IMG/VR virus record: IMGVR_UViG_3300036806_000085
Location: 1 to 44,161 of that record
DNA length: 44,161 bases
Direction: 5' to 3' (one strand)
From: a virus
Taxonomy: Duplodnaviria > Caudoviricetes
Shown here: one piece after another, positions 1,386 through 41,792 of the stretch
Numbering within the stretch: position 1 is the stretch's first letter
How the letters are laid out: each line of letters begins with the position of its first letter
Translations under genes and position numbers: made by a program
Notes under the pieces: generated by a model
What the model was told of the DNA's origin: nothing
Seen by the model: only the letters and a program-made list of their open reading frames with translations
The model's database searches: none

Positions 1386-2080
1386 TCGGTGCGCAGCGAT
1401 TCGACTGCGTCCTTGTTCGCCGGACCGTCCCGGTGTGCCTGGACCCCGGCCGCCGGCGGCAACTGCGGTTCGCCATTCGTGGCCTTCCGGTGTGTGCGAT
1501 CCCACTTCTTTCCTTTGGCACCGGCCGGTCCGCGCCGACTCCTGGGATCTGCCGCTTCCGTCGAGTTCGGTCCAACGCCGTTGTCCGGCGTTCCAGCGTT
1601 GCCGACGCCACGGTGCGGCGCCGATTCAGTCCCTTTCCCGAACTCCTTATCGTTCTCGTCTTGCTGCGCGACGATGGATTCGAGCGACTGAATCGGCAGG
1701 TGTAGTTGATCCTGCATCTGCGACGCCAGTTTGTCCGCCGCGTCTTCCGTGGAGTTGGCGTTCCGGATCCCGCCGAGTTCGGGCTGGGCGTTCACCTTCT
1801 TCTCGAGCAGGGTCACGACGCGCGTGTACTCCGCCAATGCGGTCAGCCACGCCTTCGCCAAGTCCGGGCTGACTTCGATCGCGACCGTGTCCTGCTCGGC
1901 CGACGGCACCTTGTCGAGTTCCGCCTTCAGGTTGGTAATGAGATTGATGACCGACTCAGCTTCCCGCGGCGATCGGTTGAGACGCTTCAGGTAGCCGGCC
2001 GCATCCGTGGCGATCTTCAGCACCTTGTCAATGCCGGTCCTCGTAATGTCGCGCTGCAACTTCGATGCACTGACGATCAT
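1382..2080 (-). CDS. Hypothetical protein (helical N-terminus, disordered C-terminus)
   Basis: 232-aa ORF with ATGA coupling at both ends. Confidence 0.75.
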   Translation of the reverse strand: MIVSASKLQRDITRTGIDKVLKIATDAAGYLKRLNRSPREAESVINLITNLKAELDKVPSAEQDTVAIEVSPDLAKAWLTALAEYTRVVTLLEKKVNAQPELGGIRNANSTEDAADKLASQMQDQLHLPIQSLESIVAQQDENDKEFGKGTESAPHRGVGNAGTPDNGVGPNSTEAADPRSRRGPAGAKGKKWDRTHRKATNGEPQLPPAAGVQAHRDGPANKDAVESLRTE

Positions 2081-2388
2081 ATCGGGCGTCCTGGGTGAGT
2101 GGGAGCCTTCTTGCTGGCCCGTTCATCGAGCCAGCGCTTCGTATCAGCAGCGACCTGCGGCCACAACTCTATGCCTCTCGCGTCAAAGCGAATCGTGCCG
2201 GACGGGTGTGCGACCGGCAAGCCGACGAACTCGGCGCGCTGATCGCCGCGATAGAGCCATTCGATGATGCCAGCGAGTCCGCCTTGAATCGTCAACTGCT
2301 TCTCGACCAGCCGGACCGAGAGGTAGCGCTTGACCTCGACGGGCAAGAGCTCCCACCCGCCAGGATACCGGCCGGGAATCTCGGTCAT
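2077..2388 (-). CDS. Hypothetical protein
   Basis: MTEIPGRYPGGWELLP... ATG at 2388 overlaps the upstream stop. Confidence 0.65.
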   Translation of the reverse strand: MTEIPGRYPGGWELLPVEVKRYLSVRLVEKQLTIQGGLAGIIEWLYRGDQRAEFVGLPVAHPSGTIRFDARGIELWPQVAADTKRWLDERASKKAPTHPGRPI

Positions 2389-2603
2389 GCGCGCGCAACC
2401 TTCGAGACAGGGACGACGTCGAACGCACTGCCGAACGATCCCATGTGCTCGAAGACTTCGAGTTGCGCTTCGGTCATCGTCTTCCACCGGTGCGCCGCCT
2501 TCTCAATGGCCGTCTCGCGGTGCACCTGCAGGCGTGGCGGGAGCAGGAGAAATCGCTTCGACGTGCGATGCTGGATCGCGTACTCACTCGAGTTATCGTC
2601 CAT
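2385..2603 (-). CDS. Hypothetical protein
   Basis: MDDNSSEYAIQHRT... tiles between neighbouring genes. Confidence 0.55.
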   Translation of the reverse strand: MDDNSSEYAIQHRTSKRFLLLPPRLQVHRETAIEKAAHRWKTMTEAQLEVFEHMGSFGSAFDVVPVSKVARA

Positions 2604-2871
2604 CGAAGCACCCCTCGCTTGGCGTGTGACGTATGTGACAGTCTGAACACGGTGCTGGCCGCGTATCGAACTCAGCCGCGCGCCCGCGTAGCCGCCGCTC
2701 GAGATTGAGCATGCCCGCTTCGGTGAACGGGCACGCCGTTCCGTGGACCGTCCAGAGCGGTGTGACTTTCGGAAGGATGATGCACAACGCATGGACTAGG
2801 CTCGCCGCTTCAAGCAGATCGAAGCGCGTCGCCATCGGGTTCATGTCGACCGATGCGATCGTCTCAGGCAT
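2593..2871 (-). CDS. Hypothetical protein with Cys/His motifs
   Basis: MPETIASVD...HGTACPF...PCSDCH. Overlaps the bet stop. GGAG upstream. Confidence 0.55.
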   Translation of the reverse strand: MPETIASVDMNPMATRFDLLEAASLVHALCIILPKVTPLWTVHGTACPFTEAGMLNLERRLRGRAAEFDTRPAPCSDCHIRHTPSEGCFDGR

Positions 2872-3895
2872 TGGTCGACTCCACCGGCGCCGGATGGTCG
2901 TCGTTCCACTGACGCAACCACTCGGCATCTTCGCCGGCCAGCACCTCGCCCCCTGCCTGCCGTTCGATCAGCTTGGCGATCGACGCCATCATGTCGAGCG
3001 GCACCTTACGCCGTTCGAGCTCTGATTCGACGGCCTTGATGAAGCCGACACCGAGTCGGCCAGCCGCCGTCTCTTTGCGGCCAGAATCCTTCCACGGTTC
3101 ACGGAACGTCGCGATGAGATACGACGTCGGGATGACCGCCAGCGTCCTGCCTTTGTGCTCACCGAACGTGAGTTCAACACTTCCGTCTTCGGTCGCGCGC
3201 GCGGTCATGGTCTCGCCAGCCAACCGCGGCCGGGTCGCTGACGCCGCGATCGGTGCGCGCGGCTCGTCATCAACGTCGTCGTGGATTTCATCGTCGGTGT
3301 AAAGGCCCGACAGTTCGTGCGGGAACGCCTTGCGCAGCGCGAGCGCTTCCGCGCACTTCGCCAGCATCACCGTTGGCTTCTCCTTCCACTGCTTATTGGG
3401 ATTGCCGTCCCGTTTCTTCTGCACGTACTCATCGTACATGGCGATCGCGTAGAGCGGTTCGTCAAACCCCTCGCGCAACACACCGACCTTGCACGCGACG
3501 GGCGGCTTCTTCGGGTCGAGCCACACTTCGCGGCCGTTGCCAGCAGGATCGTAGAACACGGGTGCCTTCTGGCCGCGGTACTCGCCGGTGCGCTGCGCCA
3601 CCAGCCGGAACCCGTCGATCCCGACCTGTGTGACCATCGCGTCGATCCACTGCTGCGTCTCTTCGTCCTTCGTCCGACGCTTCAGGCAGTAGATTTGCTT
3701 CGCGAACGGATCGAGTCCCGTGCGCTCGCATTGATGCACGAACAGCGCGAACTCGTCATCGCTCGCACCCTTCGCGACCGTCTTCTTCAGGAGCTCGACG
3801 AGCTCTGGCGTCAGCCGCTCGCGCAGCACCAGCGCCGTCTTGCCGACCGACGACGCGACCGCGCTGGCGCGGCTCTCTTTGTTGGTGGCGTCCAT
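2864..3895 (-). CDS. bet: Phage recombination protein Bet (RecT/Red-beta single-strand annealing family)
   Basis: ASDDEFALFVHQCERTGLDPFAKQIY, VGIDGFRLVAQRTGEY and MLAKCAEALALRKAFPHELSGLYTDDE motifs. Confidence 0.92.
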   Translation of the reverse strand: MDATNKESRASAVASSVGKTALVLRERLTPELVELLKKTVAKGASDDEFALFVHQCERTGLDPFAKQIYCLKRRTKDEETQQWIDAMVTQVGIDGFRLVAQRTGEYRGQKAPVFYDPAGNGREVWLDPKKPPVACKVGVLREGFDEPLYAIAMYDEYVQKKRDGNPNKQWKEKPTVMLAKCAEALALRKAFPHELSGLYTDDEIHDDVDDEPRAPIAASATRPRLAGETMTARATEDGSVELTFGEHKGRTLAVIPTSYLIATFREPWKDSGRKETAAGRLGVGFIKAVESELERRKVPLDMMASIAKLIERQAGGEVLAGEDAEWLRQWNDDHPAPVESTNA

Positions 3896-5117: not shown

Positions 5118-5324
5118 GCGAAGGTCGTACTTGGCAAACCGCCCGCCCCTCTTTCAGCGAGCCCTCCCGAATCACGGAGCCACCATCGGAACTGGCTTGT
5201 ACGCTTGCACGTAATCGGTTGACTCCCCAACCGCCTCCGCTTCTGTCGATCCTGCACGCTCTCCGGCATGTTGAGCGAGAGCGATCCAATGTTGACGCGC
5301 CGGAGTATGCCCTCCGGTCCTGCA

Positions 5325-5397
5325 AGCTGTCGGCGCGAATCGAACGCGCAACCTGTCGTTTACGAAACGACTGCTCTGCCCGTTGAGCTACAACAGC
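5325..5397 (-). tRNA. tRNA-Thr(CGU), CCA not encoded
   Basis: GCTGTTG-TA-GCTC-AACGGGCA-GAGC-A-GTCGT-TTCGTAA-ACGAC-AGGTT-GCGCG-TTCGATT-CGCGC-CGACAGC-T folds as a cloverleaf. Confidence 0.93.
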
Positions 5398-5542
5398 GTG
5401 GAGCGGATTCGCCTCGGACCCGCGAGTTGGGCGGCCAGTTACCACGCTAGGCGGTAACTGCGTGTGCCCAATCTGCGTCAGCGTACTTCTGTCGGCCTCT
5501 GACGATAAGCCCACTCAGGTTGCTACCCGAGAAAAGAACGTA

Positions 5543-6250
5543 CTACTTCAGCACCGCCCCCGCAACTGCCCCGCACGCTACGGCGGCACCGACCGCCACC
5601 GCCGGCCCCGCCAGCGTGCCCAGCCCGCCGCATCCCGCCGCGGCCGTCACGACGATGATCCCGTGCACCGCTCGGTGGATGATGCCCGGCTGATGGCCTT
5701 TCAGGTCGTCGATGACTTTCTGCTGGGCCTCGTGGTCTTCTTTCGACGTGCGCAACGCGAGGTCTTTCCCGACCAGCGCCGCCGCTTCGGCTCTCACCGC
5801 ATCGGTGAGTTGACCGGCGAGTCGCTGGGCCGAATCCCGCTCCGCATGGAATCGGGCGTCGAGCACGGAGTCGGCCCGCGTCACGCTGTCGATCTGAGCA
5901 CGTAACTGCGCCGCTGTTGCGCCGCTGTCCGCCGCCGCGCGTTCTGCCCGCGCGCGCGCGCCGATCGCCGCCGTATCCGCCACGTCCGTCGCCGCCACGG
6001 CCCGCACCACCGGCGCCGCGGCCTTTTGCGCGAGTTTCACCAAGGCCAGACTCGACCGCTCGAGACTATCGGCTTGCTTCGTGGTCACGGCGACCAGCGA
6101 GTCGATCGTTTTGGCGTTCGCAACGTCCTGCGCGTCCGTCGCCGTCTGCGCGCCGCTGTGGTGCCCCATGCCGTACGCGACGGCGAGCAGCACCAGCCCG
6201 ATGACGACGGCGCTACCGTACTTCTGGCCTTTCGTGGTAAGTGCGATCAT
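5543..6250 (-). CDS. Spanin-like (Rz-type) membrane protein
   Basis: N-terminal TM segment, long Ala-rich coiled coil, hydrophobic Gly/Ala C-terminus. Immediately downstream of the endolysin (ATGA overlap). Confidence 0.6.
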   Translation of the reverse strand: MIALTTKGQKYGSAVVIGLVLLAVAYGMGHHSGAQTATDAQDVANAKTIDSLVAVTTKQADSLERSSLALVKLAQKAAAPVVRAVAATDVADTAAIGARARAERAAADSGATAAQLRAQIDSVTRADSVLDARFHAERDSAQRLAGQLTDAVRAEAAALVGKDLALRTSKEDHEAQQKVIDDLKGHQPGIIHRAVHGIIVVTAAAGCGGLGTLAGPAVAVGAAVACGAVAGAVLK

Positions 6251-6726
6251 TGCGCTCCGACGGCTTGCCACACCGCCGGCATCCCACCGGACTTCAGCAG
6301 TGCGCGCGCCTGATTTGAAGGTGAAGGTTTGCACGCGCCCCACTGGTGGTGTGGAAGGTCGCGCTGTTTCCAATCCCCGCCCCACTTACACTCATGTCGC
6401 TTGAAGATCGTCGAGACGCTGGCGAACCACGCATCCGGCATCTCCCACTCCTTGACGCGGTGAATCACATCAACCGCGAGCCCAAAGCCGTGCCACGTAT
6501 ACGTTTCGTCCGGTGCGTTCGTGACGGTCGACGTTGGTGGAATCACCGTGCGCCCACGTGCGTAATACAGCACCGCGAGCTCATGCGAACGCACCGTCTC
6601 GTAGACGACCGCGTCGAGCCCCGCCGCGGTGCACTCTGCCAGCGCCAGCGAGACCGCGTCGCGAAACTTCGGTGCCAGGAGAGCGAGCGACGACTGAACG
6701 GCTGGCGTGTTATTTCCAGCGCTCAC
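6247..6726 (-). CDS. Endolysin, peptidase M15 family (L-Ala-D-Glu peptidase-like)
   Basis: YETVRS...YYARGRT...VTNA...TWHGFGLAVD...WGGDWKQRDLPH Zn-peptidase motifs. Confidence 0.9.
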   Translation of the reverse strand: MSAGNNTPAVQSSLALLAPKFRDAVSLALAECTAAGLDAVVYETVRSHELAVLYYARGRTVIPPTSTVTNAPDETYTWHGFGLAVDVIHRVKEWEMPDAWFASVSTIFKRHECKWGGDWKQRDLPHHQWGACKPSPSNQARALLKSGGMPAVWQAVGAQ

Positions 6727-7106
6727 ATGACTCCCGCGTCCGCCGTGCCGTTCGCCCATTCGTTCGGGGCGAACGCCGTCACAGTCTTCGAGACATCGGT
6801 CTTCGTCAGGGAGATACGGTTCGCGATCGCGCCAGCCAGCGCATCGAAATGCTTGGCCCCGAATGCGGTGGCGACGCTCGAGAGATAGACGAGCAGGTCG
6901 ATTGTGCTGACCTCCTCCGTGGCCTGCTGCACGCTCCCGTGCACGACCCGCGCATGGATCCCGAACGCATGGTAGCAGAAGACCGCCATCCCGAGCAGCG
7001 CGAAAAGAGGAGGGAGCACCGTTCGCGTCGCCTGTCCGACCCGAGACGCCCAGCCCCGGTCTTCGATCCGGCGACGTGGTGCGAGCGCCATCTCAGCTGC
7101 GGTCAT
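6723..7106 (-). CDS. Putative holin
   Basis: 127 aa, two hydrophobic segments, AAGGAG RBS, directly upstream of the endolysin. Confidence 0.6.
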   Translation of the reverse strand: MTAAEMALAPRRRIEDRGWASRVGQATRTVLPPLFALLGMAVFCYHAFGIHARVVHGSVQQATEEVSTIDLLVYLSSVATAFGAKHFDALAGAIANRISLTKTDVSKTVTAFAPNEWANGTADAGVM

Positions 7107-7741
7107 GTGCCCATCTCCTTCTTTACGGGAATCGCCGCACCAACCCAACCCAGCGGTCGGCCGGCCGCACTCAACACCAAGTCAGCACGACATCGTACTT
7201 CCGCGCTCTCGCGGGTTAGCACGTTCTGGTAGCGGAACGTCTCAATGAAGATGCGTTTTTGGATGATGGCGTTTTCCCACTGCTCCACGATGCGCGCGCG
7301 GTCTTCTTCGTGAATCGCCGTGACCCAGCCCCATCCCTGCATTTGTTCGGTCGTCAGCCCTGTCAGCGCGATCCATGCTTCGTTCACCCACATTTGCTGC
7401 CCGTGCGCATCGCACTCGAACATCGGAATCCGCCGTTCGTTCGACGCCAGCGATCGCGTCATCAGCCGATTCATCGCTAAGCTATCCTGCATCTCGCCGA
7501 AGCCGAGCGACATCTTCTGCACCAAATCTTTCAGCGAGCTCCCGCTATTCGTCGTGAGTTCGTGTTCAATGCCCGCGATCTTCTTGGCGGCCGTGTTCAA
7601 CTCCCACCAGTCTTGACGGAACGCGGAATAGCGCTTCCGCACCTGATGGCCAACGGCCGGCACCAAGCCGAGTGCGGCAATCGCGGATACGATCTCAGCG
7701 AGATCGCGGACGTTCTCGAGCGTGAGCGAGTCAAGCATCAT
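7103..7741 (-). CDS. Membrane-anchored PAS-domain protein
   Basis: TM (IVSAIAALGLVPAVG), coiled coil with NSGSSLKD, then PAS signature MFECDAHGQQMWVNEAWIALTGLTTEQMQGWGWVTAIHEEDRARIVEQW. Confidence 0.88.
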   Translation of the reverse strand: MMLDSLTLENVRDLAEIVSAIAALGLVPAVGHQVRKRYSAFRQDWWELNTAAKKIAGIEHELTTNSGSSLKDLVQKMSLGFGEMQDSLAMNRLMTRSLASNERRIPMFECDAHGQQMWVNEAWIALTGLTTEQMQGWGWVTAIHEEDRARIVEQWENAIIQKRIFIETFRYQNVLTRESAEVRCRADLVLSAAGRPLGWVGAAIPVKKEMGT

Positions 7742-9606
7742 GACGTCGACACTACGACCCAGCCGGGAATGTCGTGCGAATATCGGAGCACGATCGAGCC
7801 TTTCGCCGCGATCGTTACGTCCGCCCCCGTGGAACTGGTGATCCGATTCGCGGCCGCGGAGCTCGCGCTCGCGTTGGCGATCGTCATCACATGCGCGGAT
7901 GCGTTGAAAATCTGGACCAGACGGCCCGCGTAGTCCGCGACAAAGCCGGTGATCGTAAAATCAGCCGTCTCGCCGAAGATGCGGATAAACTCCATCCCGC
8001 CAAGGATCATGTTGACGAGTGGCAGCGCGACATCGTTGTTCGGCGTCGAGGAGAGCGCAAGCGTATTCTCCATCCCGAGGCTGTCGATCAGCGCCCCCGT
8101 GCCATGCCCAGAGCACCCGATCACGGTGATGAATCCGACCGAGTTGGACACACCCTGAATCTTGACCACGCCGCCCGACGTGCTGAGATACGCCCCGCGG
8201 ATCGTGAGGGCGTTGACGCCGATGATGCTGATGCACCCCTGCGCGTTCGTCTGGAGGAACAAACCGCCGGTCACCGAGCACGCCTCGGAGTTACCGACGC
8301 CCGTGCCAGAGTTGAAGGTCGTGTTCGTGTACTCCAAGAGTGGCGATCCAGAGCTCCCTTCCCACTCACCCCCGATAATCACATGTCCGAGCGCACCGGC
8401 CACGCGCACCTGCTTCGAGCACCCGTTGTAGTTGTTCGTGGCGAGTTCGTGCGCGTAGCCGCCATCATCCACGATACCCGCCACGCTGTTTGATTCGTTG
8501 ATCTGACAACGCTTGACTGAAATGCGGTTCGTGAACGCGCCACTGGCCCCGACAGTATGATCGGGACCGTTCACCAGCCAGATCGCGGCGCGCAGCTGAC
8601 TCTCGATGTTGCACAAGTCGATATCGCCGAGTTCGGTCTGATCAAAAATGACGCCGTAGTTGAACCCGCTGATGTGGACATTGAACAGCGAGACGAACGT
8701 GCCGCCGACATCGACATAGCCACCGCCGGTATTCGACCCGTTCGTGCAGACCAAGGCCAGATCACGGACGGAGGTTTTTGCGATATTCTGCACGTTGATC
8801 GTGCCGGGAAACTTGATGCCGTCGCCCGTCGTCGCCCACGTCAAGATGCTCATGGCCGGTGACTGTCCCTGCAGGATGACATTCGCCAGCATGGTCAGCG
8901 TCGCGCTGAACTTGTACGTGCCTGGGGGAACCAGTATCGTCCCGCCGCCGAGCCCGTGCACGTAGGTCATCGCCGCGGTGAACGCGGCCAGATTGTCGGT
9001 CGTGCTATCGCCGACGGCGCCGAAGTCTTTGACGGAGACGATTTCGGCCATCTTCGCATTGGCCGTTCGCTCCACCGCGCCAGTACCAGACTGCAGGAAG
9101 CCCGGATCCGCAATGACATCGGTGACGCCCTCGACTCCCAACCCATCACTGCGAACCCGCAGATAGTAGCTCGGCAGGAATGTCGAAATAACCGGATCCA
9201 CGTTTGCGGGAATCGATGGCACATGGAGCGCGAGCAGCGCGTCCGCCGCCAACTGTTGATCGACCATCATCCCGTAGTCGAGCGCATCTTCGTAATCCTC
9301 AGGGAAGAACTCGCCCTGATTGCGAAAGTCGGAGTCTTGCACCAGCGGAACGACGCGCTCGATCGTCAGCGTCCATCCGCTCGTCACGGCGTTCGTCGTC
9401 GTGATGCTCCCGCCATTCTTGGCCCCGATTCCGCCAGCGCTCACAGTGAAGTCTGCGGGATAGTTCAGCTGCGTCACGTTCCCGAGCAGATCCGTCGTGA
9501 ACACGTTCAGGTGCGTTGCGGCGAAGATTTTGTAGTTGAACGCGAACGGTCCCGTCGTTCCCGACCCGAGATAGTCGTTGCGCGTGTTCGTTGATGTGAC
9601 GGTCAT
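7738..9606 (-). CDS. Tail fibre/tailspike with beta-helix (pectate lyase-like) domain
   Basis: T7-gp17-like anchor (YLGSGTTGPFAFNYKIF...FRNQGEFFPEDYEDALD) followed by VSVKDFGAVGD...TILVPPGTY. Confidence 0.9.
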   Translation of the reverse strand: MTVTSTNTRNDYLGSGTTGPFAFNYKIFAATHLNVFTTDLLGNVTQLNYPADFTVSAGGIGAKNGGSITTTNAVTSGWTLTIERVVPLVQDSDFRNQGEFFPEDYEDALDYGMMVDQQLAADALLALHVPSIPANVDPVISTFLPSYYLRVRSDGLGVEGVTDVIADPGFLQSGTGAVERTANAKMAEIVSVKDFGAVGDSTTDNLAAFTAAMTYVHGLGGGTILVPPGTYKFSATLTMLANVILQGQSPAMSILTWATTGDGIKFPGTINVQNIAKTSVRDLALVCTNGSNTGGGYVDVGGTFVSLFNVHISGFNYGVIFDQTELGDIDLCNIESQLRAAIWLVNGPDHTVGASGAFTNRISVKRCQINESNSVAGIVDDGGYAHELATNNYNGCSKQVRVAGALGHVIIGGEWEGSSGSPLLEYTNTTFNSGTGVGNSEACSVTGGLFLQTNAQGCISIIGVNALTIRGAYLSTSGGVVKIQGVSNSVGFITVIGCSGHGTGALIDSLGMENTLALSSTPNNDVALPLVNMILGGMEFIRIFGETADFTITGFVADYAGRLVQIFNASAHVMTIANASASSAAANRITSSTGADVTIAAKGSIVLRYSHDIPGWVVVSTS

Positions 9607-12600
9607 TATCTCCCCCGTTGTCCCGTGATGAGTCCACGCGTGTAGTCGATCGGTCCGGTCGGCGTCGTCTTTCCTTGCTGCAGGTCCATCTGATAGCTGA
9701 TCGGCCGCGCCAACGTCTTCAGTGGCAGGTGCAGCAGCGTCCCGAAGAACCCGAGCGCATCCTTCACATCCTTCCCCGTGATTTGCTCGCCCGTGACCGC
9801 GCGATGCCCCGCGCGGAACGCGCCGGCTGATTCGTCAAGAAACGTTGCCGTCGGCGACGATAGCATGTTGTCGGCCGACGCGCCGGCGTGGTGGAACGCG
9901 AACTTCGCCGACTGCACCGCGACGTTGCCACCCGGCACGAACCGCGCGACGGCCTCGAACTGGCCCCAGCCCGCCCACTCCGCGAGCACGTCCGTCCAGG
10001 TCTCGTCGTCCTTCTTTTTCCGTCCGCCGATGACGTCGCGCGCCGCCGCACCCGAGACACTGAGCGCCAGCAGGCCGAACACGTACACCGCCGCCATCCG
10101 CTGTTTGCTGCTCTTCAGGCCCGCATCAGTCATGGTCTTCGCGAACGCGTCGGTGCCGAGCTGGTTGGCCTTCGCATTGAAGAATCCGTACAGCCCGAGC
10201 ATCGCCTTCTGCATGGCTGTGCCGCGCTGAATCTCGGCGATGTCTTCGGGGTTGTGGCCGCCAAGTCCTTCACGCACGACGTTGTCCGCGTAGTCGACCG
10301 CATCCTGTCCGTGGATCCCACGCTGTTCCGCCCGATCGCGCGCGCCCAACCAGACCGCCTTGTCCATCAGCGAACTCATGACGTTCGACACGAAGCCGAC
10401 GCCGTGCGCCGCAAACTCCTGCATCGTCCGCAGCTTCGACGGGTCCATGATGTCCTTGTACTGGACTTCCGCCGCGCGCAGCCGGGCGTGGTCGCGCGTC
10501 GCGATCGTCGCCGACGCTTCGTGGATCATGTCCGTCAGTTTGTTCGGCGACAACACGATGCGCGCCGCGGCGCCGGCGACGTCGTGATAGTAGACGCGGG
10601 CCTTGTTGTCCGGCGTGCGCATCGCCTGCAGCGCCGACGTGTGTAGCACCTGCTCGGCGAGAATGACCAGGTTGGCGCCGACCACCTGCTGCATCGCACC
10701 CTGCCGGACGTAGTTGATGGCACGCGAGAACGCCTTGCCGATCGCCGTGGTTTCCGGTGCGCTCGAGCGCTGGCTGGATGCGGCGCGCAGGAAGGGAATC
10801 AGCGCGTCCGAAATCATCGCCGGATTCACGCCGGCCATCGCTTCGCGGAAGTCCCGATGGTTGAAGACCTTGAAGACTTCGCGGACCGGCGGCGCCATGT
10901 GGATGTACTTCAGGACCGCGTCCAAGTGCCGCGGAAACTGGCCGGCGTCCATCACCAGCGGCCACGTCTTGCCCGTGCGGGTCTTCGTCATTCCGCTGGC
11001 CGGCTGCGTCATCAGGAACTTGCCGTCGGTGCCGAGCAGCTGGTCTTCGCTCGCGCGCATCGCGTTCTCAATCTCGGCGCCGCCTGCGACGTTCGTGTCG
11101 CCGATCGCCGGATAGTAGCCGCCTTCATAAGTGCCGAACGGCGTCTCAAACGGGGTGTGGCCGACTTCCTTCATGTATCGCGCGTTCACCGCGTAGTACG
11201 CCTTCTGCAGTTCCGGCTTCAGTTCCTCGAAGTAGTCCCATGATGACTGCAGCCAGTCGTAATCGGCCTTCGTGAGAATCTTTTCTTTCTGCATCCGGCG
11301 CACGAACGCATCCCAGTTACCGCGATCGAGGACGCCATTCTCGTCGATCGTGCCCCAGCCACGGCCGACGATCAACTTGACCAGGTTGCTCGCGGCGCCT
11401 TCCGCGTTCCCGGTGTGCAGCATGGCGCCGAGCAGTTCCGCCCGATCCTTGAACGTGTAGCCGCCGAGTTCGTGCGCGATCAGGTCGTGCACTTCCGGCA
11501 GTCCGCGCAGCGCTTCCGTGGTCTTCGCGACGCGCTCGAGCACGTCGGTCTTGTGGCCGCGGTACTTGTTCGTGGCGTTGAACACTTCGCGTACGACCTT
11601 CGACAGCGGCCCCAGCACGTTGAGCCCGTCCATGAATCGCGCCCACGACTCCACGCGGCGCGCGCCGGCCTCGAAGCTGAGCGCCGTGTTCGCCAACTTA
11701 TCGGTCGGATCAAGCGACTTCTTCACGCCGCGCGCCGCGACCCGTTCGTTCTTCCGGTCGACGACTTCCTGAACGATCGGCGCTAGGACGTCGGCGAGCT
11801 CCTGCACCTTGCCGTCCATGACCACCTGCTTCGCTTTGCGTGCCAGCGTCCACAGCTGGTCGACGGTCTCGCGAAGTTCCGTGAATTGGTCCGTCGTCAG
11901 ATCGCGGTAGTCGCGGATCCCGAGATTCCGGACGTCTTCCGTGATGGCCTGCACGTTCTCGTAGGCGTCCGGCGCGTACTCCTTGACCATCGAGAGATAC
12001 GACGTGGCACCCTTGTCGCTCGACCCGATGCCGAGTTCCGCCAGCATCGCGCGCGCGCCGTTCACAAAGTTCAGGTCGTACGCTTTCTCGAGCCGCGCGT
12101 CTGACAGGAAGACATCCTTGAACTCGTCCAGTGACTTCTCGAACTGCGCCTTCGCGTCCGTGGCCGCATCGAAGACGGCCGTCGCCATCCGCTCTTTCTC
12201 TTTGGCGTCGAGTGCGCCCTGAAAGTCGCCAGCAAGAAACTTGTCCGTCGACTCGCGGTGCGCGCGCTCAGCCGCTTTCTCGAACAGGTCCGGCCGGATG
12301 TCGCGCACCTTCGTCGAGCCGATGACCGAATCGGCCTGCTTCCGCACTTCCTCGTCGGGTGCCGCGCGCCGGTTCAGCTTCTTCACCAGCCCCTTGAACG
12401 CGGCGAAGTCGTCCGACGCCAGGTGCTCGGCTTCCAGTTTCAGCAGTTGTGCGCGCTTCACGCCACCGCGCACTGCCTCGACCGCGGCTTCTTTGATGTC
12501 GGGCACCGACGGCTGCTCGCCATGCTCGTCCCGCATCCGCTGATCCGTGAGGAAGTCGATCAGGGTGTTCTTGTTCCCAGCCTTCGACAGCGCGTCGACC

Positions 12601-15600
12601 AGCTCGCGGCCGTTCGCGAAGCCGAACATGTCGGCCACGACGCCCGCGTTCACGCCGCCCTTCTCGGCCGTCGCGAGAATCCCCCGCGGGAGTGACGCGG
12701 CGAACTCCGGTCCGTACGTCGCGACGATCGACTCCTTATTCAACTTCAGCTTCGGCGCGTCCGCCGGCAGGTCCGTCCCGTCCGGCGCCTTGCCGCGCAA
12801 GTAGTCGAGCGCCTTGTAGACCGGACGGTTGCCGACCTCTGCGCCGATTTCCGCACGCATCGGATCGCGCCACGCCTTCCACTCGGCCGACTGCTCGCGC
12901 ACGATGTCGCGCGTCATCTTCTGGCTGAGTTCTTCTTCGGCGGACTGGTGCGCATCGGCGATCGCCTTCCGGTAGCGGTCCGCCTGGTCCGCATTCATGC
13001 CAGCGGACGCGGGATCCCCGTACAGCGGTTCGACGTTCGCCGTGCGCTCGGCGTCCGCAATCTCTTCCTTCGACGCGAGCAGGCGATCGAAGACGCCGCG
13101 GACTTCCGGCGTGAGGTCGACGCCCAGCGCGCGCACGTTCTTGTAGATGTCGAGCAGCCAGTTCTTGAACCGGAAGAACGCCGTCTTCAGGGTAGCGCTC
13201 GGTGCCTTGCCTTCCATCAGGTACGCTTCAAACCCGCGCGCAAACTGTTCGTGCTGCTCGCGGGTGAACGGCTTGTCACCCTCGGCGCCGACCCATTCGC
13301 GAATCGTTTGGTAGTCGGCCTTCAGGTCTTCCGTTGCGCTCGGCGCTTTCGCCAGATCGCCCAGAACTTCGAGATAGAAGTGTCCCGTTTCATGGATGAA
13401 GGTTGAGCGGTCTGCGTTCTTCAGTAGCTCGATGCGGAACTCGCGGCCATCGCCGAACGTGATGCGACCGCGCGCCGCCTGATGCAAGATGTTCGGATCG
13501 TTCGGATCGAACGCGCCCGTGTTGCCCGTCGAACTCTTGATCTGTTCCGGTTTGAATACGACGTAGTGATCGGCTACGACGTTCGAGAGTCCCGCCGCGT
13601 CATCAAGGTTCCGGATGATGACGCCGTCCTTTCCATCCGCTTTCGCCTTCCTAATAAGTTCGGTCAGACTGCCTTCAAAGCCAGCGAAACTTTCGCCTTT
13701 CGCGTCGACAACGGCCGGCTTCTTCATCGACAGGTATACCGGCACCACATTCTGCCCACGCATCCGACTTTCGGTGTCCGCTCGGAACTGCGCTTCGAGC
13801 TTTTCGTACTCCTCGACTTTCGCATCGTGCGTCTGCCAATCGCCGCGCTTTTCGGCAGCGTCGGCTTCTTCCATAATCTTCAGCACCGCATTGTCCGTCG
13901 CGGCGTAGTGCGCGTAACTGTCGGCAACGCGCGGGCTGTCGGTAAAGAAAAATCCGATCTTCGCGCTATTTGCGCGCGTCGTGTCGCCAAGCTTACCAGC
14001 ATCGAACTCGGAGAAATCGCCGACCGTGCCGTGATAGACCTCGAGCGGCGTCCCGTCATCCTTCACGACTTTCGACTTGCCAAACCACTTCTTGAACTCT
14101 GGCGTCTCCGTGACGACTGGCTTCGCCGCCTGGTTGAACTCGAAGCCGGTAGGTTCCTGATTCACCGCGTTGCGCGTGCCCGACATGTACGCTTCCGCGT
14201 GATCCATGCCCCGCTTCGTCATCTCGGCTTCGAGCTTCGCGATCGTCTTGGCGCGCGCCGCGATGCGGCCCATCGCCTTCATCGCCCCCGGCTTTAGGCC
14301 GGTCCACGTTGCGCCTGTCCCGGTGTCGATCGCGGACGGGGCCGTATTCTCCACGGCGTTCGCGTCGATCAGCAACTTGTACTCGTTCGCGAGTTCTTCC
14401 GGCGTCGCCTTCGCCAGATTCTTCAGCCGACCGCTCGCCGTCCGTGGCCGTGCCAGTTCCGCCGCCTGCGGTGATCCCTCCTCTTCGTTCAGTCGCGCCG
14501 CTTCGGCTTCATCCGAGAACGTCGGCGTGATGCTCTCGATGAACTTCGCGCGCCCCTTCGCCGTTTCTGCGACCGCCGGTTCCGCGCTCTTGGCTTGGAC
14601 GTCGAGCTCGGCCTTCGCGGTCCCGAGTGTCGCTTCCTGCGCGCTCGCCGCCTCTGCCGCGCGCCTCGCCGTCTCGAGCTTCGCGGTGGCTTCCGGGGTC
14701 GGTTCGAGCGGCCCGCGCCCGATGGTGAGCCCGTAGCGGTTGAAGAGTTCGCGCGCGCTGACGTTCGCCCGTTCGCCTAGATTGCGAAACGCCGACTCGT
14801 AGAGTTGCGCCTGCGCTTTCGCGGCGCCCGGCCCGACGCCCGCCTTCACCAGCTGATCTTCGACGTCCGCGCGCACCTGCGCTGCGGACTGTTCCATCGG
14901 CTCCTGCTCACCCTTCGCCTGCTTCGTCGCTTCGTCCGCCAGTTCCGTCATCGTCGCCGGAAGCGACTGCAAATACTCCTGCGCTTCGCGGAACGACATC
15001 CCGTCCGGTCGCGTGCGCGCAACGTCGAGCAGCCCATCGAAGTGCTCCGTCGGCGCGACCTTCGTGATGTAGTCGGACAGCGGAATCGCGAGCCTGGCGC
15101 CGGTGGCCTGCGCATCGTGGTACGCTTTGCCGTCGTCGCCCATGATGTCGGCCGCGGCCTTCGCCGGTGACGCGCCGCGGTCCGACCAGTACTTATCCCA
15201 CTCGCCGGACTGGAAGTACACCGTCGCCGCGTCCTGCCCGCCCGTGGCCGTCTCGATCAGGCTCTTCAGGCGGTCCGGTACCGATGCTGTCGTGCCAGCG
15301 TCGTTGACTGCCCGGCCGACCTCGGCGAGTACCTGCGCGTCGTGTTGCGCGCGCATCGCATCTTCGGCCTGATCGGTCGCCTGCGCCGCTGCGGCAGCGG
15401 TCTCCGGGTGAAGCATCGCGCGCCGGCTGGCGCCGACCGCCTCCTCCGCGCCGCCGAACGCCAGCATTTGCAAGGTGGTCGAGATAGCGCGCGCCGGATC
15501 AACCGGCTCCCCGATCGCCGCCTTTCCCGCCTCCGTACCGGCAGCGACACCAACGGCAGGAGCCGCAATCGCCGCAGTCTTCGCGCCGACCTTCGCCACA

Positions 15601-16817
15601 ACGCTCGCGTCCTCGCCAGCGAGTCCAGCCGCCTTCGCACCGATGATGTTGAACAGGGTCATCACTGCGGCGGACGTGAGCCCTGCTTTCGTCGCCTTGC
15701 TGCGGATGTCCGACATCAACTGGTGATCACCGAGCGCCTTTTCGACGGCCGCTGGATCAGCCAGATCAACGCCACGCTTGGTGAACTCTTGCTCGATTTC
15801 GGACGCGATACCAACCCCGGACGCGCCAACGAACGTGCCGGCGATCCCGCCAGCCACGTTCCCGACCACCGGCACTTCACTTCCCGCCGCAGTGCCGAGT
15901 GCCGTTCCCGCGAGGATCGGCGCCATCGACGCCAAGCTCTCGACGTTCTGATACGCGAAGCCCTTCACGCGGTTCAGTCCGGCGACGTGCGCACCAATGA
16001 GGCTGATGGTTTCCCCCAGCGTGTTCGCCGCCGCGGGGTCCACGGCCATCGGCTGGTTCCCGGCGATCGCCTGGCCGAAGTTCACCAGCGCGTTGAGAAT
16101 CCCAGCCTTCCGCGCCGGACCGTTTCCGGCCATGACCGCAGACCGCGCCGCGTCCAAATCGCCTTCGTGCTGCTGAATCGCTGCTGCATACTCCTTTGCA
16201 TATGCAGGAGCTTGTTCGCGGAGCGAGTTCGAACGCACCTTCGCGGCGGCAATGTCGGCTGCGGCTTGCGCTGGCGTGGCGTGTCCGAACGCCGCGGCGA
16301 GCAGGTGCGTCGAGAGCACGAGGTCCGACATGCCGGTGGCGATAGCATTTCCCGTCGCATCCAGCGGCCCCGCGTTCTCGTCGTCGATCTTTGACGGCGG
16401 CGTGAGCAACTTGGCGCCGCGATCAACCTGCGCGAGCGGCGCAATTTCATGCTTCGCGATCGAGGCGTTGTCCGGGTCGGACAGCCAGTTCCGGAGTGTC
16501 GGACTGACACTATCTATCTGGTACTGCGTCGAGTGCTGGTCCTGCGCCTTCGCGAGTTCGTCGTAGTTCTCGTCGACAAACGCTGGCGACATGTTGAGCC
16601 GGCCAGCCAGATCCAGCACTTTCGCGTGCCGTTGGGGGTCTTTCTGCGCCGCAACGAACGCGGCGCTCGCCGTTTCCGGTGACGGCGTTACGACGGGCTG
16701 TTGGACGCGCGGGCGCTGAACGACCGGCGACGGCGTCCCTTGCACTGGCGCCGCTGGCGCTGGCTCGTCTTCTACGGCCGCGCCGCCGACGGGCACCGCG
16801 AGGTCTTCACCGGCCAC
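9606..16817 (-). CDS. Giant internal virion (ejection) polyvalent protein with ADP-ribosyltransferase-like and HExxH metallopeptidase-like domains
   Basis: 2403 aa in the T7 gp16 position. Motifs FKKWFGKSKVV...VYHGT...GFFFTD...DGVII...VFKPEQIKS and STFIHETGHF...HEQFARGFEAYL. Confidence 0.85.
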   Translation of the reverse strand: MAGEDLAVPVGGAAVEDEPAPAAPVQGTPSPVVQRPRVQQPVVTPSPETASAAFVAAQKDPQRHAKVLDLAGRLNMSPAFVDENYDELAKAQDQHSTQYQIDSVSPTLRNWLSDPDNASIAKHEIAPLAQVDRGAKLLTPPSKIDDENAGPLDATGNAIATGMSDLVLSTHLLAAAFGHATPAQAAADIAAAKVRSNSLREQAPAYAKEYAAAIQQHEGDLDAARSAVMAGNGPARKAGILNALVNFGQAIAGNQPMAVDPAAANTLGETISLIGAHVAGLNRVKGFAYQNVESLASMAPILAGTALGTAAGSEVPVVGNVAGGIAGTFVGASGVGIASEIEQEFTKRGVDLADPAAVEKALGDHQLMSDIRSKATKAGLTSAAVMTLFNIIGAKAAGLAGEDASVVAKVGAKTAAIAAPAVGVAAGTEAGKAAIGEPVDPARAISTTLQMLAFGGAEEAVGASRRAMLHPETAAAAAQATDQAEDAMRAQHDAQVLAEVGRAVNDAGTTASVPDRLKSLIETATGGQDAATVYFQSGEWDKYWSDRGASPAKAAADIMGDDGKAYHDAQATGARLAIPLSDYITKVAPTEHFDGLLDVARTRPDGMSFREAQEYLQSLPATMTELADEATKQAKGEQEPMEQSAAQVRADVEDQLVKAGVGPGAAKAQAQLYESAFRNLGERANVSARELFNRYGLTIGRGPLEPTPEATAKLETARRAAEAASAQEATLGTAKAELDVQAKSAEPAVAETAKGRAKFIESITPTFSDEAEAARLNEEEGSPQAAELARPRTASGRLKNLAKATPEELANEYKLLIDANAVENTAPSAIDTGTGATWTGLKPGAMKAMGRIAARAKTIAKLEAEMTKRGMDHAEAYMSGTRNAVNQEPTGFEFNQAAKPVVTETPEFKKWFGKSKVVKDDGTPLEVYHGTVGDFSEFDAGKLGDTTRANSAKIGFFFTDSPRVADSYAHYAATDNAVLKIMEEADAAEKRGDWQTHDAKVEEYEKLEAQFRADTESRMRGQNVVPVYLSMKKPAVVDAKGESFAGFEGSLTELIRKAKADGKDGVIIRNLDDAAGLSNVVADHYVVFKPEQIKSSTGNTGAFDPNDPNILHQAARGRITFGDGREFRIELLKNADRSTFIHETGHFYLEVLGDLAKAPSATEDLKADYQTIREWVGAEGDKPFTREQHEQFARGFEAYLMEGKAPSATLKTAFFRFKNWLLDIYKNVRALGVDLTPEVRGVFDRLLASKEEIADAERTANVEPLYGDPASAGMNADQADRYRKAIADAHQSAEEELSQKMTRDIVREQSAEWKAWRDPMRAEIGAEVGNRPVYKALDYLRGKAPDGTDLPADAPKLKLNKESIVATYGPEFAASLPRGILATAEKGGVNAGVVADMFGFANGRELVDALSKAGNKNTLIDFLTDQRMRDEHGEQPSVPDIKEAAVEAVRGGVKRAQLLKLEAEHLASDDFAAFKGLVKKLNRRAAPDEEVRKQADSVIGSTKVRDIRPDLFEKAAERAHRESTDKFLAGDFQGALDAKEKERMATAVFDAATDAKAQFEKSLDEFKDVFLSDARLEKAYDLNFVNGARAMLAELGIGSSDKGATSYLSMVKEYAPDAYENVQAITEDVRNLGIRDYRDLTTDQFTELRETVDQLWTLARKAKQVVMDGKVQELADVLAPIVQEVVDRKNERVAARGVKKSLDPTDKLANTALSFEAGARRVESWARFMDGLNVLGPLSKVVREVFNATNKYRGHKTDVLERVAKTTEALRGLPEVHDLIAHELGGYTFKDRAELLGAMLHTGNAEGAASNLVKLIVGRGWGTIDENGVLDRGNWDAFVRRMQKEKILTKADYDWLQSSWDYFEELKPELQKAYYAVNARYMKEVGHTPFETPFGTYEGGYYPAIGDTNVAGGAEIENAMRASEDQLLGTDGKFLMTQPASGMTKTRTGKTWPLVMDAGQFPRHLDAVLKYIHMAPPVREVFKVFNHRDFREAMAGVNPAMISDALIPFLRAASSQRSSAPETTAIGKAFSRAINYVRQGAMQQVVGANLVILAEQVLHTSALQAMRTPDNKARVYYHDVAGAAARIVLSPNKLTDMIHEASATIATRDHARLRAAEVQYKDIMDPSKLRTMQEFAAHGVGFVSNVMSSLMDKAVWLGARDRAEQRGIHGQDAVDYADNVVREGLGGHNPEDIAEIQRGTAMQKAMLGLYGFFNAKANQLGTDAFAKTMTDAGLKSSKQRMAAVYVFGLLALSVSGAAARDVIGGRKKKDDETWTDVLAEWAGWGQFEAVARFVPGGNVAVQSAKFAFHHAGASADNMLSSPTATFLDESAGAFRAGHRAVTGEQITGKDVKDALGFFGTLLHLPLKTLARPISYQMDLQQGKTTPTGPIDYTRGLITGQRGR

Positions 16818-19098: not shown

Positions 19099-19292
19099 TA
19101 CGCTACCCTCGCTGCGGCGTCTTCCCGCTCGAGCTTTTTGAGTTCCCGCTTCGCGACGAGCCGGTGCTGCTGGTCGTCGTTGATATTCACACCGAGCCGG
19201 ATGATCGCCTGTCGAAGTTCTGCGATACGCAACGTCCGGCGTGCGTGCGCGCGGCCGTGATCCGTCGGGTGTTGTGCGCGTCCAGGCATCAT
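19098..19292 (-). CDS. Small basic hypothetical protein
   Basis: 64 aa. TGATG and TAATG overlaps with both neighbours. Confidence 0.6.
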   Translation of the reverse strand: MMPGRAQHPTDHGRAHARRTLRIAELRQAIIRLGVNINDDQQHRLVAKRELKKLEREDAAARVA

Positions 19293-20299
19293 CAATCCCC
19301 CAGCACGTAGCGGAAAATGAGCGGCGCCACAATCGTCGCGTCCGAGTGAATGTCGAACGTCGGCGTGTCGACATCGAGTTTTGACCACGTAATCTTCTCC
19401 CGTGGCTGTGCCCCAGAATAGCCGCCGTACGACACGTGCGCATCAGTGATCTGGGTGAAGGATGCCCAGAACGGCGTCTTCTTCTCCTGCATTTCCGTGA
19501 GGAGATACGGCACCACGCAGATTGGTCCGTCGCCCGCAATGCCGCCGCCGATTTGGAAGAAGCCGATGGGAGTCTTTTTCGCCGCTGCGCGATACCAGTT
19601 CCCCATCTCTTCGAACCATTCGGTGCCGTCACGGACCGTCTTGTTCTTGACCTCGCCCTTTGCGCGGAGCCCGGCGTACAGATTGCCCGTCGTCGAATCT
19701 TCCCACCCTGGCGTAAAGATCGGGATGTTCATATCCGCCGCCGCGAGCAACCACGAGTTCGCGGGATTCCCCTCGTACTTGTCTGCCAGCACGCCAGAGC
19801 GGATGACGTCGTACAGGAACTCGTACGGGAACTTGCGCACGCCGGCCGCGTCTGCCGCCTTCCACGCGGCCGTCAGTGCGTCACCGACCGGCTTCATGGC
19901 TTCGACTTCGGGGATGGTCGAGTCCGTCACGCGCGGATGCCCCGCCTTCGCCAGCTTCATTTCCTGCTCTGGCGTCAGGTTCGCGTAATTCGGGAGATAG
20001 GTGTACGAGTTGAAGCCGACCAAGTTGAAGAGGTCTTCTTCGAGGTTTGCCCCCGTGCACCCAATCGCGCAGACGTTCCGTTCACGAATCATCCGCGCGA
20101 GCGTGATCCCGATTTGCGCGGTGCTCATGGCGCCAGCGAGCGTGACGAACATATCGCCATCCTGCTCGAGCAAACGAACCCACATCTGCGCCGCTTCCAC
20201 CGTGGTCGCCGCGTTGTAGCCTTGGAAATCGGTTTCCAGTATCCGCCCGAACGGACCGGGCGAACGCCGCAGCGGGGCTTTCGTATCGAAGAGCGACAT
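19292..20299 (-). CDS. Deoxyhypusine synthase-like / homospermidine synthase family protein
   Basis: TLAGAMSTA, CTGANLEED, PGWEDST, FQIGGGIAGD, SYGGYSGAQPREKITWSK (catalytic Lys region) and SDATIVAP motifs, all intact. 335 aa. Confidence 0.93.
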   Translation of the reverse strand: MSLFDTKAPLRRSPGPFGRILETDFQGYNAATTVEAAQMWVRLLEQDGDMFVTLAGAMSTAQIGITLARMIRERNVCAIGCTGANLEEDLFNLVGFNSYTYLPNYANLTPEQEMKLAKAGHPRVTDSTIPEVEAMKPVGDALTAAWKAADAAGVRKFPYEFLYDVIRSGVLADKYEGNPANSWLLAAADMNIPIFTPGWEDSTTGNLYAGLRAKGEVKNKTVRDGTEWFEEMGNWYRAAAKKTPIGFFQIGGGIAGDGPICVVPYLLTEMQEKKTPFWASFTQITDAHVSYGGYSGAQPREKITWSKLDVDTPTFDIHSDATIVAPLIFRYVLGD

Positions 20300-20304
20300 G
20301 GATT

Positions 20305-40573: not shown

Positions 40574-41274
40574 GGCGTCTCCTGTTGCGCTGTGAGGTAG
40601 GCCCGAAGTTCTTTCGCGCACCATGCAATGTTGTCTGTATCGCCTCGAACAACGGCGTCTCCGTGTTCGAGTTCGTGCAGGATGGCCGCGAGGCGGCTGT
40701 CGGTCGTGATGGGTGTGGGCGTCTCCGCCGACGCTCCTGAGATGAGATAAGGAATGGTTTGCGTCAGTGCGTCCGCAGCTTCGCGGCGCGTGATGCTCAC
40801 CCCATGCCGAAGGAGAATCTTCGCGAGCCGTTCTGCCGCTGGCGCATCTTCTTCGACCGGCTCATATGATGGTCTACGATTTGCGGGCGTCTCCGCCGAC
40901 ACGGGGGACTCGGCTGGCGACTGATTGAGCAGGAAGCGCACGATGGCGTCCCGCTGGTCGAACGGCATTTTCTCCGCAAACCGTGGCCACCGCTCATTCA
41001 GTGTCCGGTGCAGTTGTGCCACGACCTCACGGTAGTCCGGTGTGGCGCTCTCCTGCTCTGGAAGTCCTTCGACATGATCGGCTACCTTCGCCTGGGCTCT
41101 CGTGAGCAGGATAACCGCGTCCGTCAGGTGAATGGATGCTCCGGCGCGTTCCACGGCATCCACCGCGGCGGCGATTGCGCGCTCTGTCGGCGTCCATTGG
41201 TCCATGCAGTTGCGGCGAGGGAAGTCGCTTCCAAAACGCGGCACGGTACGCGGGAGGTTCGTGGGATCGGTCAC
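40570..41274 (-). CDS. Hypothetical modular phage protein
   Basis: PRRNCMDQWTPTERAIAAAVDAVERAGA...LTDAV domain plus Pro-rich linkers. GGAG RBS. Confidence 0.7.
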   Translation of the reverse strand: MTDPTNLPRTVPRFGSDFPRRNCMDQWTPTERAIAAAVDAVERAGASIHLTDAVILLTRAQAKVADHVEGLPEQESATPDYREVVAQLHRTLNERWPRFAEKMPFDQRDAIVRFLLNQSPAESPVSAETPANRRPSYEPVEEDAPAAERLAKILLRHGVSITRREAADALTQTIPYLISGASAETPTPITTDSRLAAILHELEHGDAVVRGDTDNIAWCAKELRAYLTAQQETP

Positions 41275-41792
41275 GGGGCGATCTCCCGCGCAGCGAACTC
41301 TCGCACCAGCCGCACGGCCGCGGCCCCACTCGTCATCGCCTCATATTCGGCCCCACTGAGTTTGCCGTTCGCCAGAAACGGCGCGCAGGCCTTCTCGTCG
41401 TGCCACAAGGCGGAGAATCGTTTGGCGATCTGCTCGCCAGAAAAAGCGCTCTCCTGCTCCGGAAGGGCGGTTGGAATCGGTATTTCCAATCGGGACACGA
41501 TCAGTGCGTTGAGACTGACGCCCGCTCCGCTGGCTTCCTCGGCCATCGCGCGGTGCAAGTCAGCGCCGAGTCGGAGCAAGATGCGACCCGAATAGGTGCG
41601 GTTGGGTGCTTCACCGCGTGTCTCGCACATCGCGAGATAGTCGTCCACCGACGCGTGAAAGGCCCACTCGATTCCCTCAACCGATGTCGCCTCGAAGGTC
41701 ACGACATCAACTACGGCATCCACGGTGCCGAACAGCACGTGTGCGTCATCATCGAACACCACGCTCGCGCGATACCCGCGATACGGCTTCAT
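41271..41792 (-). CDS. hicB: HicB-family antitoxin with C-terminal extension (no cognate hicA)
   Basis: YRGYRASVVFDDD..LFGTV...VTFEATSV...AFHASVDDYLAMC...YSGRILLRL...LH...GVSLNALI. Confidence 0.88.
   Translation of the reverse strand: MKPYRGYRASVVFDDDAHVLFGTVDAVVDVVTFEATSVEGIEWAFHASVDDYLAMCETRGEAPNRTYSGRILLRLGADLHRAMAEEASGAGVSLNALIVSRLEIPIPTALPEQESAFSGEQIAKRFSALWHDEKACAPFLANGKLSGAEYEAMTSGAAAVRLVREFAAREIAP

Follow-up and report, generated by a model that had tools for sequence, protein, structure and literature searches.

What could a membrane-anchored protein that ends in a PAS domain be doing beside the lysis genes of a phage? The question is raised by one gene in a virus record of 44,161 bp (CheckV 100%), called here the window, by which we mean the whole stretch of DNA that was analyzed. 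The record carries terminase, head-tail connector, GP7-type capsid, tail, and RecT genes. Near the end of a minus-strand late operon, the genes follow in the order tailspike, PAS gene, gene for a 127-aa membrane protein, M15 endolysin, and Rz-like gene. A preliminary description had proposed that the PAS protein is a holin or antiholin component which ties the timing of lysis to the metabolic state of the host. The features of the region are these:

7738..9606, minus strand: tailspike, overlapping the start of the PAS gene (PHROGs tail; Pfam pectate-lyase-like)
7103..7741, minus strand: membrane-anchored coiled-coil and PAS protein, 212 aa, ATG start (Pfam, TIGR00229, AF2 model, fold comparison)
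7646..7702, minus strand: single transmembrane (TM) helix, residues 14-32, predicted N-out/C-in (hydropathy, charge bias)
7526..7561, minus strand: helix-break motif ELTTNSGSSLKD, residues 61-72, common to PAS-less phage membrane proteins (phrog_9869)
7127..7426, minus strand: PAS domain, residues 106-205 (Pfam, AF2 model, fold comparison)
6723..7106, minus strand: orphan membrane protein, 127 aa, candidate holin or partner (position only)
6247..6726, minus strand: M15 peptidase endolysin, 159 aa (Peptidase_M15_4, PF13539, 31.4 bits, cut-off 25; phrog_2649, E 9e-13)
5543..6250, minus strand: candidate Rz-like spanin (phrog_1026, E 4.4e-5 only; hydropathy)

The PAS protein and its neighbors in the late operon

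Successive genes of the operon are joined by four 4-bp stop/start overlaps (ATGA at 7741-7738, ATGA at 7106-7103, GTGA at 6726-6723, and ATGA at 6250-6247). The three downstream starts were chosen by us, each after a GGAG-type site, and the ORF finder gives longer upstream starts. No sigma-70 promoter or terminator was found in 5200-8200. The coupling of the PAS gene to the tailspike, M15 endolysin, and Rz-like genes, as previously described, stands; the product of 6723-7106, described as a holin, is a putative one. This 127-aa protein has one clear hydrophobic segment (residues 30-48, 1.77), no match in Pfam, PHROGs, or NCBIfam, no relative in viral contigs, and no Atlas match above 0.79; the name "holin" is therefore owed to its position alone. 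The M15 endolysin likewise has no relatives in viral contigs. The Rz-like gene, a weak match at E 4.4e-5, probably indicates a diderm host. Besides an N-terminal TM, its product has two C-terminal hydrophobic segments rich in Gly and Ala (197-234) and may be an unusual one-piece spanin.

Elsewhere on the minus strand of the window are a gene for a 2403-aa virion-type protein with ART-PolyVal and LPD22 domains (9606-16817), an ORF resembling deoxyhypusine synthase or homospermidine biosynthesis proteins (19292-20404; Pfam DS, 121 bits; best NCBIfam NF001980, below cut-off), and a HicB-like antitoxin gene (41271-41888). The DS-like ORF sits within the virion gene module and overlaps the ORF of an internal virion protein.

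The product of 7103-7741 scored above cut-off with Pfam PAS (PF00989; 31.9 bits versus 22.6; residues 106-205, profile positions 13-112 of 113), PAS_3 (PF08447; 32.4 versus 25.6), and TIGR00229 (31.6 versus 22.9), the above-cut-off PAS matches together spanning residues ~105-205; PF08448 also matched. An AF2 model built on a 17-row alignment (mean pLDDT, 79; PAS part, 81-97) placed a helix at residues 8-64, a break at TNSG, and a second helix at 68-103 that is continuous with the PAS domain. Compared by VIA, the model matched 7oo9 and 3h9w (LOV domain, cyclase PAS) with Z 15.1 and rmsd 2.0 over 104-106 residues, and Foldseek returned PAS domains throughout, with LOV domains as the top fold matches. 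On this model, the protein has a complete five-stranded PAS fold. A Pfam scan detected no kinase or other output domain, and the chain terminates a few residues past the last PAS strand, so that output would have to pass through the N-terminal helix or a binding partner. Collectively, hydropathy, Pfam, TIGR00229, AF2, and VIA bear out the architecture first described from the sequence, namely, a predicted TM helix, a predicted coiled coil, and one complete PAS domain with no output domain.

The best 19-residue Kyte-Doolittle window of the protein covers residues 14-32, with a modest value of 1.69, and is preceded by one K/R and followed by four. The same excess of basic residues after the TM was found in 14/14 relatives with a window of at least 1.5 in a 15-row alignment (the unscored row, P0002, falls just below this threshold) and in 14/14 further proteins. 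This bias predicts an N-out/C-in orientation and hence a cytoplasmic PAS domain, a topology which for the whole PAS family is a prediction from hydropathy and charge bias only.

Relatives with and without the PAS domain

Single-sequence searches recovered only 2 proteins among 614 candidates and none in viral contigs, and tblastn in cultured phages gave no match for the 7103-7741 product or for the L089 protein. Word searches yielded three relatives, and a 4-row profile then identified 43 viral loci, 41 with a PAS domain and 2 without. A DNA pattern for the motif found at least 119 viral stretches (~130 estimated) and at least 120 metagenome stretches (~280 estimated); the pattern demanded T-N and K-D, so variants are under-sampled. 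Among the matches listed, 34/119 viral stretches encode a PAS domain, 85/119 encode short closed proteins, and none are other or cut, while the metagenome stretches divide into 52 with PAS, 63 short closed proteins, and 5 other or cut. That 85 of the 119 listed viral matches do without PAS suggests that the membrane module functions without it. Pooling gave at least 296 motif proteins, repeats included, of which at least 141 carry PAS. At least 86 of the latter are distinct and fall into 14 clusters when grouped at 45% identity. Conservation of the motif at 100% in the 86-sequence set is circular, since the sequences were selected by the motif.

In the ESM Atlas, the best seven of the ten rows listed (scores, 0.93-0.98; 65-1142 members each) were clusters whose members are 99-100% viral; their proteins have 183-229 aa and no domain other than PAS. 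An exhaustive profile search of 1.84 billion proteins returned 102,699 matches, dominated by multi-PAS proteins. Within the best 150 of these, 17 were family members, 14 of them new, and 4 of the 14, all without genomic context (P0055, P0079, P0108, and P0133; 363-396 aa), possess a second coil-PAS unit. The TM-coil unit thus occurs with no, one, or two PAS domains, which argues that the module is modular. The motif was present in 0/133 of the long multi-PAS proteins among the same best 150, and together with the missing output domain this led us to reject a fragment of a sensor kinase or cyclase as the origin of the PAS protein. Two candidates were also dropped: L002, the sole GTDB match, is a chance NERRIPMF match within an unrelated ORF, and P0007 is a generic PAS protein. 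By these sequence searches, the PAS-bearing membrane protein family is large, widespread, and viral.

The PAS-less module corresponds to phrog_9869, which overlaps phrog_15431, a family annotated "holin." Proteins of both share the same TM-coil-N[SG]GSSL[KR]D module and have no PAS domain; "holin" is an annotation label only. The N-terminal half of the window protein matched phrog_9869 weakly (E 0.0096), its relatives matched at E 8e-9 to 2.7e-3, and PAS-less forms reached E 2e-32, some of them also matching phrog_15431. A PAS-less relative is matched by 19 cultured-phage records. In Streptomyces phage mu1/6, the PAS-less gp52 comes after the endolysin and holin genes, a lysis-gene position, and in Arthrobacter phage Wheelbite, gp68 is annotated as a holin. 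The preliminary description was right to connect the motif with holin-adjacent membrane proteins. Among further PAS-less loci, L060 and L067 have a CHAP endolysin gene 2.2-2.5 kb downstream. For L053 and L076, no lysis gene could be recognized by eye up to 3.5 kb away.

Counted from the motif Asn, a conserved PAS Gly lies 34, 41, or 48 residues away in 81 of the 86 sequences found; the distance is 42 in two, 49 in two (the window and P0002), and 38 in one. Ten further proteins, two of them 97-99% identical to earlier ones, have distances of 48 (five), 41 (three), 42 (one), and 38 (one). Five of the six distinct linker lengths share one two-residue phase (rough P value, 0.011, for a range chosen post hoc). 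Spacing mostly in heptad steps indicates that the coil is probably rigid and supports a continuous coiled coil joining hinge to PAS domain. Heptad insertions and deletions suit a signaling helix, but equally any coiled coil.

Within the PAS domain, the conserved positions (F108, D111, G114, W139, and G201, at 0.86-0.93) are only generic structural ones. Heme-binding PAS domains of the FixL/Dos type are marked by a conserved proximal His. No ligand-binding residue is conserved among the 14 cluster representatives, and no His or Cys is kept in 60% or more of them, which makes one common heme or LOV-type cofactor unlikely. A LOV photoreceptor was rejected, the GxNCRFLQ motif with its reactive Cys being missing in 14/14 representatives. 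The conservation of generic structural positions without cofactor residues is also what would be expected of a lysis-cassette membrane protein whose PAS domain is a constitutive oligomerization cap that fixes timing and senses nothing. PAS domains often act as dimer interfaces, and both the abundance of PAS-less versions (the 85 of 119 listed viral matches) and the tandem coil-PAS duplications in 4 of the 14 new proteins accord with such a cap. It fits less well with the retention of a whole PAS domain across lineages at ~20-30% identity, when a plain coil is enough in PAS-less forms, or with the preserved linker phase, and divergent pockets could bind different ligands. We regard a purely structural PAS domain as somewhat unlikely.

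Gene neighborhoods of the relatives

Outside one clade of large phages, genomic context was available for six lineages (P0002, P0003, P0004, and L268 are without context), and in 6/6 an endolysin-like gene lies within 4.3 kb of the PAS gene. The distance is 0.4 kb in the window and 0.3 kb in G005, in which the order is PAS gene, gene for an 89-aa membrane protein, GH19-like endolysin gene (phrog_181, E 2e-31), and, later, an Rz-like gene. A goose-type lysozyme gene, recognized by a PDB match only (3gxk, E 2.3e-4), lies at 1.6 kb in G001, and in L105/L059 a gene scoring above cut-off with Pfam Phage_lysozyme lies at 1.3 kb with two genes between. The remaining two lineages have a phrog_9589 match (E 1.8e-10) at 4.3 kb with seven ORFs between (G003) and a convergent gene at 0.14 kb with a phrog_7 match of E 0.018 only (G002). 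Judged from these sequence matches, two of the six are clean cassettes, two are near, and two are weak; late genes cluster anyway, which limits the weight of the proximity in G003 and L105/L059. In L105, G002, and G003, no gene for a protein with two TM helices (2-TM) adjoins the PAS gene.

Two side observations concern these loci. The lysozyme of L105 (5088-6104, minus strand; 338 aa) has several N-terminal hydrophobic segments and is possibly a fused or membrane-tethered endolysin. In L302, a run of minus-strand ORFs at 1498-3814, which by eye we take to resemble the 7-deazaguanine genes QueC, QueD, QueE, and FolE, sits between the lysis genes and the terminase of G001.

The clade set apart above consists of AT-rich phages of 130-160 kb, with records up to 167 kb (for example, L003 5857-7598, L004-L043, and G007), and holds 73 of the 86 distinct PAS-bearing sequences. 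Of its 73 loci, 15 are truncated and 1 is too short; in all 57 loci with enough sequence, the next gene after the PAS gene encodes a two-helix protein of 68-79 aa (profile built from 20). Complex prediction for a PAS protein of the clade and its 2-TM neighbor gave a score of 0.00, which speaks neither for nor against pairing. The 2-TM gene is mostly followed by a gene for a 305-aa protein with no match in Pfam, PHROGs, NCBIfam, or PDB. Its invariant Q..GDCV, H, and QNSWG are motifs that we take to be papain-like, and it may be a novel lysin. In the complete genome G007, no endolysin was detected with PHROGs in 111 ORFs of 110-480 aa (of 198) or with 10 lysin queries over all 198 ORFs. The link of homologs to lysis genes, implied by the earlier proposal, is not contradicted by the six lineages and is not seen in the largest clade, which has no recognizable endolysin.

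These neighborhoods bear on whether the protein serves lysis at all. It could instead be a membrane-anchored decoy or scaffold for host PAS kinases or cyclases, or a morphogenesis protein, placed among late genes for its expression. Membrane-anchored PAS-only proteins could poison host dimers, no endolysin was found in G007, and the immediate neighbors of the PAS gene are terminase or ParB-like genes in L105 and G001 and, in G002, a giant virion-type gene. Such a role would leave unexplained why the PAS gene comes directly ahead of a small membrane gene and an endolysin gene in both the window and G005, why a 2-TM gene accompanies it in 57/57 loci of the large clade, and why, in cultured phages, PAS-less relatives have holin and endolysin genes next to them. 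The D29 1-TM gene family carries the label "minor tail protein" in PHROGs, which would favor a non-lysis role, but this family proved to regulate lysis, according to bioRxiv 10.64898/2026.08.27.747656. We therefore consider a function outside lysis decidedly unlikely.

Comparison with known lysis proteins

By analogy, the action of the PAS protein is most likely closest to that of the LysF1b one-helix lysis regulators, without its being a member of Pfam DUF2746. LysF1b of the F1 mycobacteriophages Girr and NBJ and LysA2b (D29 gp30) are DUF2746 proteins with one TM, oriented N-out/C-in; their loss delays lysis, they are apparent activators of a 2-TM partner, and LysF1b is found mainly in phages of Gram-positive hosts, according to PMC13056207 and bioRxiv 10.64898/2026.08.27.747656. 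Such proteins are associated with a 2-TM (or 4-TM) gene and have a cytoplasmic tail that is 30-50% charged. Common to LysF1b and the PAS protein are a single N-terminal TM, N-out/C-in (predicted here), basic residues after the TM, a long cytoplasmic helix, and ATGA coupling to a small membrane gene. The 1-TM plus 2-TM pairing of LysF1b and LysF1a recurs in the large AT-rich clade, whereas the neighbor in the window has one clear TM. Unlike LysF1b, the protein described here possesses a C-terminal PAS domain, its gene lies upstream of that of the partner, the partner is not an r1t-type holin, and the window phage has an Rz-like gene and probably a diderm host. The 2-TM protein of the clade does not align with a LysF1a-like holin (probability, 0.2%). 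The DUF2746 profile (PF10874) matched both of two controls but 0/25 of the family proteins or N-terminal halves scanned. By hhalign, the motif and the DUF2746/LysF1b core align without a register shift, with E 0.0017 but a probability of just 15.6%; this alignment is a lead for remote homology and not evidence of membership.

Single-TM holins that are regulated through a soluble domain, T4 T and phiKZ gp142, are N-in/C-out (PMC12894885, PMC11413866). T4 holin T with its antiholins RI and RIII (class IIIa) resembles the PAS protein in combining one TM with a folded soluble domain through which a signal controls when lysis occurs. The soluble domain of T is reportedly GAF-like. T is N-in/C-out, has a periplasmic domain, and requires RI; its counterpart in the protein described here is a PAS domain, which is predicted to be cytoplasmic. 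In phiKZ, gp142 with its regulator gp143 (class IIIb) is likewise a single-TM lysis protein with a cytoplasmic regulatory domain, but it is N-in/C-out, its helical domain is N-terminal, its soluble regulator is a separate protein, and it is without PAS. Membership in the class III holins was rejected on the charge bias, which indicates N-out/C-in. Among viral models, Foldseek also matched two proteins of cultured Cellulophaga phages, made up of a TM, a coil, and a domain with a PAS-like fold (E 1.8e-4 and 2.5e-5), assigned by length to phi18:3 gp090 and phi19:1 gp108 (L295 39102-39620; L301 6203-6925). Both lie in lysis regions, gp090 two genes ahead of a GH108 endolysin. They have basic residues before the TM (by eye) and are apparently N-in/C-out, and with neither the motif, a Pfam PAS match, nor a profile match to the PAS family, they would be analogs at best.

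Could the PAS protein be the holin itself, a single-helix, N-out/C-in holin with a folded regulatory domain, as in T4 T or phiKZ gp142, and the neighbor as an accessory? LysF1b alone sustains lysis and poison-triggered lysis (PMC13056207), holins that combine a single TM with a soluble regulatory domain are known (PMC12894885), and the neighbor in the window has no holin family match. The matches that Foldseek gave to T4-type holins (E 0.06 and 0.16) are, however, not significant, the hydropathy of the TM is modest at 1.69, class III holins have the opposite orientation, and the 2-TM gene pairing in the large clade is strict. We consider this identity very unlikely. As for the earlier proposal of a holin or antiholin component, its link to lysis is partly supported, and a LysF1b-type activator or partner is a better fit than an antiholin, deletion of LysF1b being reported to delay lysis (PMC13056207).

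Our preferred reading, to which we assign a probability of roughly 0.45 by analogy with these systems, is that the PAS protein is a lysis regulator with the PAS domain as its input for a small molecule or a host protein. Translational coupling through the observed overlaps would yield the protein along with the products of the late lysis genes, and it would insert N-out/C-in as parallel coiled-coil oligomers. The TM helix and TNSGSSLKD hinge would be the lysis-active part, as in PAS-less relatives, and this unit would activate or assemble with the neighboring small membrane protein. A change of state in the PAS domain on binding a small molecule or host protein would be sent back along the coil and would advance or delay triggering, after which the M15 endolysin and Rz-like protein would complete lysis by the established pathway. 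A more specific form, in which the cytoplasmic PAS domain is wired by a rigid coil to a one-helix trigger and a host metabolite or redox state sets the burst time, we hold to be rather doubtful. If true, it would mean a lysis clock gated inside the cell, as opposed to lysis inhibition in T4, where superinfection is sensed on the periplasmic side.

A full-text search, with most subscription papers outside its coverage, found no published report of a PAS protein in a lysis cassette. By analogy, the PAS-capped form would be an addition to the one-helix kind of lysis regulator, and the PAS family would carry the recently described lysis pair of 1-TM and 2-TM proteins over to phages whose hosts are probably diderm. 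In the clade of 130-160 kb phages without a known endolysin, the run of PAS and 2-TM genes is a candidate lysis cassette. Burst size is determined by the time of lysis, which is usually credited to the holin alone. A PAS domain carried by a membrane protein of the lysis cassette would be a possible direct route for tuning the latent period to the state of the host.
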